Assembly (NCBI GenBank): GCA_964371245.1 | Contig: CAYJKP010000001.1 | Location: 1 to 51,127 of the forward strand | DNA: 51,127 bases | Direction: 5' to 3' | Source: an uncultured Gammaproteobacteria bacterium | GTDB taxonomy: Bacteria; Patescibacteriota; Patescibacteriia; JAHIZJ01 | In this document: positions 1-5,664 of the stretch, piece by piece | How the letters are laid out: each line of letters starts with the position of its first letter | How positions within the stretch are numbered: position 1 is the first letter of the stretch | Position numbers and translations under genes: made by a program | The notes under the pieces: model-generated | The model's input: only the letters and a program-made list of their open reading frames with translations | Databases searched by the model: none | Told to the model about the DNA's origin: nothing

Positions 1-458
<458 letters not shown>

Positions 459-522
459 TTACTCTGGCTGACCAGAATCGCGGATGCAATGTATGGTTGT
501 TACTCTATTCACTCGCAGGTGT

Positions 523-650: not shown

Positions 651-769
651 TCCGGGTGTTTCAAGCGACTGGGTCACACCTGTTCCCATTCCGAACACAG
701 CCGTTAAGCCAGTCCGCGCCGATGATACTCGCCCCATAGAGGGTGCGGGAAAGTAGGCCAATGCCCGGT
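651..769 (+). rRNA. rrf: 5S rRNA
   Basis: Core CACACCTGTTCCCATTCCGAACACAG..GTTAAG..CGCCGATGATACT..GGAAAGTAGG. Terminal helix CCGGGTGTT/AATGCCCGG; flanking precursor stem TTCAGTTCAG/CTGAACTGAA. Confidence 0.97.
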
Positions 770-3675: not shown

Positions 3676-4932
3676 ATGGCACACATTATTACAGATCTCC
3701 ATCTCCATTCGAAGTACTCCCGGGCCGTGTCCCAAGACATGGACCTTGAGCACATGGCCGCCTGGGCGGCGAAAAAAGGCATTGACGTTATCGGCACGAG
3801 CGACTTCACTCATCCCGAATGGTTTCGAGAACTGACGGGTAAACTCGAACAACGGCCGAACGGTTTATATAAACTGAAAGCTTCATCCCTTCCAGTTTTT
3901 TTCATCCCGGTGACCGAGCTTTCATGCATCTACAGCCAGGGCGGACGAACGCGGCGAATCCACACCGTCGTTGTCGCCCCAGATTTGAAGATCGTTGAAT
4001 TGATCCGGACCAAGCTTGGCTGGCAGGGAAATTTAAAATCTGACGGCCGGCCGATTCTCGGTTTGAGCTCGATCGAGCTCGCAAAAAACATCTTTGACGC
4101 CTCGCCCGACTGTCTGATCATCCCGGCGCACGCTTGGACGCCGTGGTTTTCGCTCTTCGGCTCGGAGTCGGGCTTTGATTCGCTGGTCGAATGTTATGGT
4201 GAGTTTTCGGACCGGATCTACGCGATTGAAACCGGCTTGTCATCCGACCCGCCGATGAACTGGCGTTTGAGCCAGCTTGACAAGAGGCAAATTGTATCAT
4301 TCTCAGATGCGCACTCCGGTGCAAATCTCGGTCGGGAAGCCACGGTTTTCGAGCTCGAAGAATTAAGTTTTAAAAACATCGCGGAGGCCCTGAAGTCGCC
4401 GACAGACAAAAATCGCATCGCTTACACGATTGAGTTTTTCCCTGAGGAGGGCAAATACCATTGGGACGGCCACCGAAAGTGTGAAGTTCGATTTTCACCC
4501 CAGGAAACAAAACAGCATAATTCGATCTGTCCGAAGTGCGGCAAACGCTTGACTGTCGGCGTAATGAGCCGGGTGGAAAAACTGGCTGACCGGCCCGAAG
4601 GTTACAAACCCGATACCCGGCCTCCGTTTAAAAGCCTCGTGCCACTGGCCGAGGTGATCGGTGAGGCGCTGGGCGTGGGTAAAGGATCAAAATCCGTCCT
4701 GGCCGAGTATGACAAGCTCGTTCAGGCCGGGAAGAGCGAATTCAACGTTTTGTTAAATGTCGAGTTGAGTGAACTTCAGACGATGACTCAGCCGCGGATA
4801 GTCGAGGCGATTCAAAAAGTCCGCGATGGAAAAGTACACATTAACCCGGGATATGACGGTGAATACGGCACGGTGAAGATATTCGATGAACAGGGAAAGA
4901 ACGTGGCGACAAGGCAAAGCTCGCTGTTTTAA
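3676..4932 (+). CDS. Endonuclease Q family (PHP domain plus zinc finger) DNA repair protein
   Basis: DLHLHSKYSRA, GTSDFTHP, PAHAWTPW, ETGLSSD, SDAHS, GKYHWDGHRKC..CPKCG and PGYDGEYG motifs. Confidence 0.9.
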   Translation: MAHIITDLHLHSKYSRAVSQDMDLEHMAAWAAKKGIDVIGTSDFTHPEWFRELTGKLEQRPNGLYKLKASSLPVFFIPVTELSCIYSQGGRTRRIHTVVVAPDLKIVELIRTKLGWQGNLKSDGRPILGLSSIELAKNIFDASPDCLIIPAHAWTPWFSLFGSESGFDSLVECYGEFSDRIYAIETGLSSDPPMNWRLSQLDKRQIVSFSDAHSGANLGREATVFELEELSFKNIAEALKSPTDKNRIAYTIEFFPEEGKYHWDGHRKCEVRFSPQETKQHNSICPKCGKRLTVGVMSRVEKLADRPEGYKPDTRPPFKSLVPLAEVIGEALGVGKGSKSVLAEYDKLVQAGKSEFNVLLNVELSELQTMTQPRIVEAIQKVRDGKVHINPGYDGEYGTVKIFDEQGKNVATRQSSLF

Positions 4933-4981
4933 GGCGAGACATTATTTTTGCAGCTGAAAAGCTGCTTTTATTATTGTAAAG

Positions 4982-5010
4982 TTGATTATTTCCCCAAAAT
5001 ACGGTACAAT
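4982..5010 (+). promoter_or_regulatory. sigma70 promoter for the tRNA-Ser locus
   Basis: TTGATT-17nt-TACAAT, 21 nt upstream of the outer tRNA 5' end. Confidence 0.65.
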
Positions 5011-5056
5011 CGCAACGATTAGTATCGTCGTGGAGAGATGCCAGAGTCTCCGTCAT

Positions 5057-5075
5057 TCCCGGATCAAGTCCGGGA
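5057..5075. repeat. REP-like palindrome inserted in the D-loop of the outer tRNA
   Basis: TCCCGGA-TCAAG-TCCGGGA, a perfect 7-bp stem. Confidence 0.75.
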
Positions 5076-5090
5076 CTGGGGCAGAGGTTG

Positions 5091-5120
5091 TCAGCCAGAG
5101 GCTGATCCGCCTCTGGCGGA
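5091..5120. repeat. Double-hairpin palindromic element inserted in the D-loop of the outer tRNA
   Basis: TCAGCC-AGA-GGCTGA followed directly by TCCGCC-TCT-GGCGGA; the loops AGA and TCT are complementary. Confidence 0.8.
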
Positions 5121-5159
5121 AATGGGCCGCACTCGAAATGCGGTACCCAGCACTAAGGT

Positions 5160-5246
5160 GGAGGCGTGCCAGAGCGGTTGAATGGGCCGGTCTCGAAAAC
5201 CGGTATGCCTGCAAAGGTATCGGAGGTTCGAATCCTCCCGCCTCCG
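5160..5246 (+). tRNA. tRNA-Ser (anticodon CGA), intact, CCA not encoded
   Basis: Acceptor GGAGGCG/CGCCTCC; anticodon arm CCGGT-CTCGAAA-ACCGG; long variable arm; T arm GGAGG-TTCGAAT-CCTCC; discriminator G. Confidence 0.97.
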
Positions 5247-5307
5247 CCCTAGTGCTGGGTCGGATCCCTCCCTCTTCGCCAGACAATAATGAATAGTCAT
5301 TTACTAA

Positions 5308-5664
5308 ATGAAGGTTACCCGCGGTGAGGCAGCCAAGAAGGAAAAACACGGCATCAACCTTTGGGTTTATCCAACCGATCAGGAAGAAGTCGGCGTGGTT
5401 TATATTGAGGTAGCTGAAGGGCATTTAGAAGAGTTTTTTCATCGGCGGTGTACCTTTATCTATTACGTGCTTGAGGGCGAAGGGACATTTTACTTAAATG
5501 GTAAACCAACGCCTGTTCAAGCAACCGATCTTGTCGTTATTCCGCCAATGACCAAAATTTATTATCTCGGTACAATGAAATTAACACTGACAACCGTGCC
5601 AACCTGGACTGAAAAAGATGAAGTCCACGTGCGGTTTATATCTAAACCTACGCCTAAAATCTAA
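5308..5664 (+). CDS. Cupin domain protein
   Basis: FFHRRCTFIYYVLEGEGTFYLNG...DLVVIPP cupin pattern. Confidence 0.85.
   Translation: MKVTRGEAAKKEKHGINLWVYPTDQEEVGVVYIEVAEGHLEEFFHRRCTFIYYVLEGEGTFYLNGKPTPVQATDLVVIPPMTKIYYLGTMKLTLTTVPTWTEKDEVHVRFISKPTPKI

Follow-up and report, generated by a model that had tools for sequence, protein, structure and literature searches.

A tRNA-Ser(CGA) gene inside the remains of another, and a candidate nuclease-linked element of bacterial tRNA genes

How does a complete tRNA gene come to lie inside another tRNA gene with the same anticodon, and which of the two copies does the cell use? This question is raised by a locus near the start of contig CAYJKP010000001.1 (NCBI GenBank assembly GCA_964371245.1), a stretch of 51,127 nucleotides, hereafter the window, from an uncultured bacterium that GTDB places in the Patescibacteriota (JAHIZJ01). 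An examination of its letters alone (the original prediction) had described an intact tRNA-Ser(CGA) set in the variable arm of an outer tRNA-Ser(CGA), and every described part of this nested layout, which spans 5032-5281, was found where it had been placed. We refer to the outer tRNA-Ser(CGA) pieces around the inner tRNA as the shell, and to any whole tRNA lying inside the remains of another tRNA as a nest. Our findings demonstrate that the outer copy is a relic, and we consider it likely that the inner tRNA replaced the gene from which this relic derives. More tentatively, and with somewhat less than even confidence, we propose that a homing nuclease drives replacements of this kind.

Throughout, G000 denotes the window's own genome and C1 and C2 its contigs, whereas G001 is a sister species in the same genus, G006 belongs to another genus of the same family, and G040 is a genome of another family; L-numbers designate fetched loci. 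The family sample comprises seven genomes, which as relatives are not independent. Genomes in the class measure 0.6-1.6 Mb, and that of G000 was scored 100% complete; uL30 was not found in G000.

The inner tRNA-Ser(CGA) and its shell

The inner copy (Table 1) is recognized as a complete tRNA by both ARAGORN and Rfam, and ARAGORN reads its anticodon as CGA, as had been predicted. It carries a 6-bp variable stem and a G at 5246; a long variable arm and the discriminator G73 are identity features of serine tRNAs. Among the 51 tRNAs called by ARAGORN in G000, the inner copy is the sole Ser(CGA), and the tRNA set of this genome is complete without counting any shell. Furthermore, the inner tRNA is identical in G001 at all 87 positions, whereas the surrounding 1.1 kb is only 89% identical, a pattern that we take as evidence of constraint.

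The inner copy encodes no CCA and is followed directly by CCC, whereas GCCA is encoded only at the outer 3' end (5278-5281), just as the original prediction held. A promoter-like site (TTGATT-17-TACAAT, 4982-5010 on the + strand) lies 21 nt upstream of the shell's first nucleotide at 5032 and is kept in both G001 and G006 at equal spacing to the first tRNA base. No such site was predicted inside the shell, in agreement with the earlier assignment of the promoter to the outer 5' end. Genes for tRNA maturation are also present in G000, including RNase P RNA (189 bits), a match to the CCA-adding enzyme family, and RNase III. The RNase P RNA match spans 476 nt (C1:652161-652636) versus the 367 positions of the model, and thus this RNA probably carries insertions. 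We also observed that the CCA-adding enzyme gene resides about 0.7 kb from a tRNA-Val nest described below (C2:291990-292391 and C2:293000-293330), an arrangement that may be coincidence.

The outer copy presents a different picture. It had been described as a tRNA skeleton, and its acceptor 5' strand, anticodon arm and 3' end are indeed present, but it is less complete than proposed, in that the T-stem 5' strand and the start of the T loop are absent, having been replaced along with the variable arm. Its D loop is interrupted by a 74-nt insert (5047-5120), and its acceptor stem includes one A-C mismatch and one G-U pair. The expectation that the outer copy would become a tRNA once its inserts were removed did not hold, since ARAGORN at its default threshold found no gene in any of three de-inserted variants; at the 80% threshold it returned one aberrant call with a 4-nt anticodon. 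As judged by ARAGORN in place of a covariance-model score, this is the result that the original prediction had named as refuting its view of the outer copy as a tRNA. Likewise, Rfam at E<=10 over 4900-5400 found no second tRNA. In G001, the shell has decayed differently, with an unpaired anticodon stem, a different acceptor mismatch, and a D-loop insert unrelated in sequence. Because the T-stem 5' strand is absent, no tRNA is called after de-insertion, and decay has taken another course in the sister species, we conclude that the outer copy is a relic rather than a gene.

Portions of the shell are direct repeats of the inner tRNA (5030-5046 versus 5158-5174, 82% identical; 5121-5145 versus 5181-5205, 84%), and the shell 3' end is 88% identical to the 3' end of the tRNA-Ser(GGA) gene at C1:69260-69284. 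The identity of the gene that once occupied the site is suggested by G006, in which an uninterrupted tRNA-Ser(CGA) with an encoded CCA follows the same upstream gene, terminator and promoter at equal spacing. The acceptor stem of this resident gene resembles that of the shell. As judged by this alignment, the G006 locus is an empty site and the shell probably the former resident gene; the limits of the shell coincide with those of the intact G006 gene behind the same promoter. At the syntenic locus of another genome, G002, a 5' shell fragment with a hairpin precedes a different tRNA-Ser(CGA), which has an inverted repeat around it.

With the G006 resident the inner tRNA shares only 71% identity, compared with 92% for the syntenic CGA gene of G040 and 91% for the tRNA-Ser(TGA) of G001. 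From these values the inner tRNA appears to be either foreign to the locus or paralogous in origin. The proposal that a replacement tRNA was delivered into a resident gene is supported by the shell limits, by the identities of the inner copy, and by sister nests whose sites are occupied or empty within one genus (see below). Other tRNA-Ser genes are similarly out of step with relatedness: the inner gene of the Ser-TGA nest in G000 (see below) is 97% identical to its G006 counterpart and 83% identical to that of G001.

The perfect 11-bp inverted repeat that had been noted around the inner tRNA is present (Table 1). Together with the inner acceptor stem it forms 22-nt arms (5145-5166 and 5239-5260), of which 20 of 22 positions are paired (91% complementary), and the inserted unit as a whole is 116 nt long (5145-5260). 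Similar pairing occurs in related tRNA-Ser genes (n=13), where the three bases of the leader that adjoin the tRNA can pair with positions 73-75 (in 11 to 13 of the 13, depending on the base). In G001, two changes in the leader arm preserve G-U pairs, which favors a constraint acting on the RNA or on a hairpin over a role as a transposase end. A 253-nt stretch of the locus folds at -130 kcal/mol (z = -6.6), and none of 200 shuffled versions folds as well.

The inverted repeat that had been proposed to bound an inserted element is thus real, but it may not be the boundary of a mobile element: it continues the acceptor stem, and nuclease-bearing cassettes elsewhere (see below) are bounded by twin hairpins. 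Of the traits of miniature inverted-repeat transposable elements, the locus displays an inverted repeat, no duplication at the outer edges, and a motif present at few places only. A genome search did recover a homologous repeat in the Ser-TGA nest, but otherwise only one hairpin behind Ser-GGA and one in genome G039. Without interruption, the inverted-repeat hairpin occurs within a T-loop insert that follows tRNA-Ser(GGA), and within a fragment of tRNA-Gln from another family. Separately, the Rfam model of the proteobacterial small RNA sX4 matches tRNA-Ser and its flanks below threshold (26 and 39 bits versus 70; window 5146-5264 and L055 82-241), and this model may itself include a tRNA-Ser-like core.

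Table 1. Positions of the nested tRNA features, and of rRNA genes elsewhere in the window
Feature	Position	Strand	Support or remark
Shell 5' part: acceptor 5' strand, positions 8-9, start of D arm	5032-5046	+	Aligns with the start of the intact G006 gene
D-loop insert, first part, with 6-bp hairpin (5058-5074)	5047-5090	+	Absent from G006; unrelated sequence in G001
Twin hairpin in shell D loop: two adjacent 6-bp stems with 3-nt loops	5091-5120	+	
Shell: end of D arm and complete anticodon arm (stem 5127-5131/5139-5143, CGA 5134-5136)	5121-5144	+	
Leader arm: perfect 11 nt (5145-5155) plus 4 nt pairing with inner positions 73-75 and onward	5145-5159	+	
Inner tRNA-Ser(CGA)	5160-5246	+	Rfam RF00005, 57 bits versus gathering score 29; ARAGORN 5159-5249
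Trailer arm: CCC, then perfect 11 nt (5250-5260)	5247-5260	+	
Shell 3' end: T-loop 3' part, T-stem 3' strand, acceptor 3' strand, discriminator G, CCA	5261-5281	+	
23S rRNA gene, 3' end	1-461		Rfam
5S rRNA gene	652-769		Rfam

Other nests, twin hairpins and nuclease genes

The arrangement in the window is not an isolated curiosity. In the same genome, a Ser-TGA nest (C1:138804-138941, inner gene C1:138836-138926) has a shell whose sequence stops within the anticodon loop and picks up again within the T loop, and a tRNA-Val(GAC) lies inside a shell that likewise ends in the anticodon loop. A tRNA-Gln(TTG) resides inside a tRNA-Gln shell split in the D loop, accompanied by an open reading frame (ORF) of 91 amino acids and by two copies of the twin hairpin at the junctions. 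Additional partial copies adjoin other genes. In front of tRNA-Ser(GCT) lies a 5' fragment that a twin hairpin splits, and behind this gene its final 21 nt are repeated; the final 21 nt of tRNA-Lys(TTT) are likewise repeated behind it, and tRNA-Asn is followed by a copy with three hairpin inserts. One of these inserts, a T-loop hairpin (C1:98960-98980), is resembled by the hairpin at 5058-5074 in the window, and the two may belong to another hairpin type that recurs. Nests at Ser-TGA and Ser-GGA are found in other genera of the family, with the roles of the two acceptor types reversed in genome G003, and the Ser-GGA nest of G006 has three layers. Rfam searches at E<=0.1 over six other nests yielded tRNAs and sub-threshold matches only.

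Orthologous loci reveal occupied and empty sites of these sister nests that differ within one genus. At the position of the Ser-TGA nest, G001 has an un-nested tRNA-Ser(TGA), and at the Gln locus it has an uninterrupted tRNA-Gln(TTG) with CCA and with no hairpins, ORF or inner gene. The Val nest is common to both species, and the 5' half of its shell has been lost in G001. Furthermore, the 3' part of the Gln shell in G000 is a chimera, identical to the inner gene at positions 21-39 and matching the G001 resident at positions 40-76, which looks like a conversion tract; no tract of this sort was legible at the window locus. In G001 (L120, on its contig C2), an insert of about 590 nt with an ORF lies directly behind the CCA of tRNA-Gln(TTG); G000 lacks it. 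A 7-nt direct repeat of the last bases of the tRNA flanks this insert, which looks like a different element that makes use of the tRNA end.

Two further observations concern tRNA genes of G000. A purine-rich insert of about 150 nt lies behind tRNA-Ser(GCT), tRNA-Ser(GGA) and tRNA-Lys(TTT) (C1:138999-139155, C1:69285-69440 and C1:195682-195851; L012, L041 and L015). Its closing stem is conserved, its end repeats the tRNA from T loop to CCA, and the insert as a whole is kept across three genera of the family; Rfam gave no match. Such an insert may represent either a structured RNA or an insertion in the T loop of a shell. In addition, a tRNA cluster at C2:24906-25324 (Glu, one unreadable anticodon, Pro-CGG and Val-GAC) encodes no CCA and has anticodons duplicated elsewhere in the genome. 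This cluster could be derived from a cassette or a phage.

The twin hairpin is a 30-nt element composed of two palindromes of 6+3+6 nt. Copies that are 88-97% identical are scattered over numerous sites (L029-L036 among them) in genomes of many families of the class, and often adjoin tRNA genes or tRNA fragments. In G000, the hairpin or a variant occurs within the Ser-CGA shell and the Ser-GCT 5' fragment, at two places in the Gln nest, and 47 nt upstream of Gly-CCC. As far as D arms of the Val/Ala type are concerned, we rejected the notion that the twin hairpin is a stand-alone D-loop intron of working tRNAs: a narrow pattern for such D arms matched in 3 of 151 class genomes at 4 places, of which only 2 are twin hairpins, and both of these reside within nuclease cassettes.

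The ORF in the Gln nest encodes a GIY-YIG domain (Pfam, 64 bits). The closest solved relatives of this protein are UPF0213 proteins and the structure-specific endonuclease SLX1, with the best matches being to UPF0213 entries PDB 1zg2 and 1ywl (E = 1.6e-9 and 1.8e-8). The cassette nuclease is a minimal GIY-YIG domain of about 90 amino acids without a DNA-binding domain. Its paralogs occur in 38 of 41 sampled genomes of the class, with as many as 13 matches per genome, several of which contain internal stops.

Several characteristics tie these nuclease genes to tRNAs. First, a tRNA lies within 400 nt at 24 of 30 fetched nuclease loci and is co-oriented in every case, with most tRNAs starting 1-100 nt after the ORF; for scale, approximately 4.6% of G000 lies within 500 nt of a tRNA. 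Second, partial tRNA copies of at least 14 nt are present beside the tRNA at 16 of the 24 tRNA-linked loci, and their breakpoints are concentrated in three loops: D (14-21), anticodon (34-36) and T (55-58). Third, several of these loci have the anatomy of nests in which the nuclease gene is retained. At a tRNA-Leu locus (L080), the order is positions 1-34, twin hairpin, full tRNA, ORF, twin hairpin, and positions 35-86, where both halves are 100% identical to the inner tRNA. At tRNA-Val (L072) and tRNA-Pro (L070) loci, a 5' part is followed by twin hairpin, ORF, full tRNA, twin hairpin, and 3' part. At a tRNA-Cys locus (L067), positions 1-34 are followed by a twin hairpin, positions 35-46, the ORF, a tRNA that lacks CCA and is flanked by an inverted repeat, and finally positions 58-76 with CCA. 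In its order of parts, L067 has the layout of the window locus with the ORF still present.

The association extends to other groups. In named genomes of Dehalococcoidia, Chloroflexia, Acidobacteriota and several groups of the candidate phyla radiation (CPR), a co-oriented tRNA lies within 400 nt of the nuclease gene at 15 of 30 loci, a set biased by the peptide patterns used to find these loci. Partial copies are present at 9 of the 16 such loci with any tRNA, often in the order full tRNA, ORF, and copy of positions 44-76. In L087, L088, L094 and others (Dehalococcoidia, Chloroflexia and Bryobacteraceae), the ORF comes right after a complete tRNA and is followed by a copy of positions 44-76 that is 97-100% identical.

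Finally, on a tree of 57 nuclease proteins, the amino acid of the neighboring tRNA changes 21 times, compared with 27.4 +/- 1.1 times in 500 shuffles, none of which gave so low a number. The Gln-linked ORFs of three class genomes from two families and of one unplaced genome form a clade with 98% support. Nuclease lineages thus appear, from this tree, to follow tRNA identity.

A candidate mechanism and competing explanations

We propose that a tRNA-Ser unit, either foreign or paralogous and bracketed by a mutually pairing leader and trailer, entered the resident gene between its variable region and its T loop, and that this event removed the resident's variable arm and the 5' half of its T arm. 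The inner gene would then be transcribed from the resident promoter, with the dead 5' half of the shell forming most likely a precursor leader of about 150 nt. RNase P and 3' trimming would release the inner tRNA and the CCA-adding enzyme would complete it, while RNase III would be available to act on the 22-bp leader-trailer helix. The shell, left without a role, would gather hairpin insertions and point mutations and erode.

How such a unit might arrive is suggested by the nests that retain a nuclease gene. The event in the window would belong to a lineage-wide series in which tRNA genes are invaded at their D, anticodon and T loops. When fresh, such an insertion would bring a small SLX1/UPF0213-type GIY-YIG gene and a spare tRNA copy, with its junctions marked by twin hairpins. 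The nuclease would cut an uninvaded tRNA gene in its loop-coding region, repair would copy the cassette from the occupied allele, and the spare tRNA would render loss of the resident gene harmless. Subsequently the ORF would decay and be deleted, leaving the inner tRNA in its shell; at the window locus, it may have been lost or may never have been present. If so, the window would hold the fossil of a selfish element not previously described, namely a cassette bounded by twin hairpins that carries a minimal SLX1/UPF0213-type GIY-YIG nuclease and a spare tRNA, and that homes into a loop (D, anticodon or T) of its cognate tRNA gene, thereby destroying and replacing that gene. Prokaryotic SLX1-like proteins would then be largely mobile parasites of tRNA genes, with twin hairpins, which are cruciform-forming palindromes, as their substrates. 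We hold this larger proposal as a conjecture that falls a little short of an even chance.

A number of observations weigh against these proposals. The 116-nt insert of the window includes neither a nuclease ORF nor a recognizable remnant of one, and no target-site duplication was seen at the outer edges of its inverted repeat. Moreover, this inverted repeat is not a twin hairpin, and thus the link to the nuclease cassettes rests on the layout shared with L067 and on the genome-wide pattern. In local alignment, the D-arm and anticodon part of the shell scores higher with the inner tRNA (24) than with the G006 resident (18), such that gene conversion or local duplication could have contributed. 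The Ser-TGA nest is present in 5 of the 7 family genomes, and its absence from G001 could therefore reflect secondary replacement rather than an empty site. Some shell-side elements, such as the 150-nt T-loop insert behind Ser-GCT, are conserved across genera, which would be odd for junk. The nuclease tree is built on 87 columns and has many unresolved forks, while relatives share tRNA labels and three of the Ser-TGA rows are near-identical relatives. Lastly, an earlier study interpreted the SLX1-like proteins of prokaryotes as repair enzymes passed on by vertical descent (PMC1564403).

Among the alternatives, the one that fares best invokes ordinary recombination between tRNA-Ser genes, whether paralogous or imported, without a dedicated nuclease; the nuclease genes elsewhere would then be passengers or repair genes. 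Homology-facilitated illegitimate recombination anchored on D-arm or T-loop segments, and remnants of integrase-type attachment sites, are examples. This explanation would account for junctions that fall in or beside the D loop and T loop, which are the most conserved tRNA segments, for the recombination joint inside the Gln shell, and for the absence of a nuclease gene from the window locus; the copies from T loop to CCA behind Ser-GCT and Lys-TTT also resemble attachment-site duplications. However, no integrase is present among the seven ORFs scanned around the locus (between 885 and 8717: nucleotidyl transferase, TrmB, cation efflux protein, a weak PHP_C match, cupin, aminotransferase, and a weak GNAT match), and 5' fragments upstream of a full gene are unlike what 3'-restoring integrases would be expected to leave. 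An integrase-type island at the tRNA gene was rejected because no recombinase was found among these ORFs and the repeats are nested instead of being direct copies of a 3' end. Passenger genes are also hard to square with the 24 of 30 nuclease loci that have a co-oriented tRNA, with twin hairpins at both junctions, and with nuclease lineages that track tRNA type. On balance, we regard recombination of this kind as unlikely.

Could the shell instead be functional, either as an interrupted tRNA that sheds its inserts, the inner tRNA among them, at the RNA level, or as a scaffold that processes or regulates the inner tRNA? The folding energy of the locus, the leader pairing in related tRNA-Ser genes, the G-U pairs kept in both G001 leader-arm substitutions, the presence of RNase III, and the supply of a promoter by the shell would all suit such a function. 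These points are outweighed by the missing T-stem 5' strand, by the lack of an ARAGORN call after de-insertion, and by the turnover of the shell within a single genus, where G001 has lost the pairing of the anticodon stem and the D-loop inserts of the two species differ. Furthermore, sister genus G006 manages without a shell, and G000 has a complete tRNA set without shells. Archaeal-type splicing was ruled out because neither the splicing endonuclease (PF01974) nor the RtcB ligase (PF01139) has a single match in this genome, despite its score of 100% completeness. A group I intron or other RNA family in the shell or its inserts was likewise rejected, given that Rfam searches of the window at the gathering score and of 4900-5400 at E<=10 returned the inner tRNA and chance-level matches. 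None of the 9 sequencing runs that contain the stretch is listed as an RNA dataset. The suggestion that the shell is a processing or regulatory scaffold finds no support in these comparisons, and a functional shell in any form seems to us improbable.

That the locus results from a merger of two tRNA-Ser genes from different strains or loci in one contig can be dismissed as practically excluded, even though tRNA arms are repeats that break de Bruijn graphs and the contigs of individual runs do end in the 3' end of the inner tRNA (5220-5249). In three sediment runs of a single study, possibly the source sample, one contig joins the upstream gene, the shell 5' part and the inner tRNA (4700-5245/5249), and a second joins the trailer arm, the shell 3' end and the downstream gene (5220/5247-5700), in each case with 0 differences. 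The two contigs overlap by 26-30 nt in two runs and merely abut in the third, such that no single contig spans the whole nest; the break falls in the T-arm region, whose sequence is common to many organisms. The same nest is present in the separately assembled G001, within the 1.1-kb stretch that is 89% identical, and a landfill run from another study contains the flanks with G001 substitutions at 5274 and 5276 in the shell 3' end. Homologous nests also occur at further loci and in other genera. As a result, we conclude that the locus is not a misassembly, which was one of the two outcomes that the original prediction had named as refuting it.

Known systems and implications for tRNA genes

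In mechanism, the nearest counterpart would be SegB of phage T4, a free-standing GIY-YIG homing endonuclease encoded in a tRNA gene cluster (PMC2330249). Both systems place a GIY-YIG gene among tRNA genes, vary in presence between close relatives, and show apparent co-conversion of flanks, as in the chimeric Gln shell. In contrast to SegB, the enzyme here is an SLX1/UPF0213-type domain of about 90 amino acids without a DNA-binding domain, twin hairpins mark the junctions, and the cassette lands inside a tRNA gene together with a whole spare copy, leaving a nested wreck. In addition, the hosts are cellular genomes of several phyla rather than a phage, and cleavage by the enzymes described here is something that we infer.

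Integrative elements insert in tRNA genes and restore the part that they displace, with attachment sites in the anticodon loop or T loop. In outcome, such target-restoring elements would be the closest parallel. In both cases tRNA loops are targeted and the destroyed part is supplied, and the 3'-end duplicates behind Ser-GCT and Lys-TTT are a further likeness. However, the seven scanned ORFs include no integrase, a complete tRNA is supplied rather than just a 3' segment, 5' fragments are left upstream, and the inserts measure only 0.1-0.6 kb.

In anatomy, the best comparison may be with archaeal tRNA genes that are disrupted. Intron-containing, split and permuted tRNA genes occur in Archaea and in a red alga, where they are functional and are spliced by the bulge-helix-bulge endonuclease (PMC4390854, PMC3728597, PMC10714607). 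These genes resemble nests in being interrupted at several positions and in having leader and trailer helices around the pieces. The differences are that the interrupted copy in the window lacks essential parts, that the endonuclease and RtcB were not found in G000, and that a whole second tRNA fills the gap.

Ribosomal RNA genes of CPR bacteria carry mobile inserts, some of which encode homing endonucleases (PMC11270868, PMC9297842). The kind of host is the same (a small genome in which uL30 was not found), and structural RNA genes are invaded in both cases. Those inserts, however, are removed from the RNA, whereas here the tRNA gene would be killed and replaced rather than spliced. With regard to the nuclease itself, an earlier analysis described the SLX1-like family as repair enzymes of mostly vertical descent, derived selfish GIY-YIG enzymes from a UvrC-like lineage, and reported an SLX1-like fusion with a tRNA G18 methyltransferase (PMC1564403). 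The cassette members differ from such proteins in being multi-copy, often broken, and tied to tRNA genes. Our literature search, which had most subscription journals outside its reach, found no publication that reports tRNA genes nested in one another in bacteria or that connects SLX1-like GIY-YIG genes with tRNA genes. Candidate cassettes of a nuclease plus a tRNA, which would invade tRNA genes in small-genome bacteria, thus seem to be both undescribed and widespread.

Annotation pipelines will miss or mis-call nests, and methods that locate integration sites by tRNA-based logic will misread the fragments. If the proposed homing is correct, it would constitute a new strategy, in which an element destroys an essential gene and brings the spare, and it would provide a concrete function both for stand-alone SLX1/UPF0213 GIY-YIG proteins and for the conserved twin-hairpin motif. 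The process would amount to a gene-replacement drive acting on tRNA genes, and repeated rounds would give matryoshka layers such as the three at the Ser-GGA locus of G006, and would explain tRNA gene trees that are at odds with species relationships. Stray tRNA fragments, CCA-less tRNAs in genomes that otherwise encode CCA, and conflicts between tRNA and genome phylogenies would likewise be accounted for. The tRNA genes of small-genome bacteria would then be battlegrounds, where residents are repeatedly overwritten by mobile copies.

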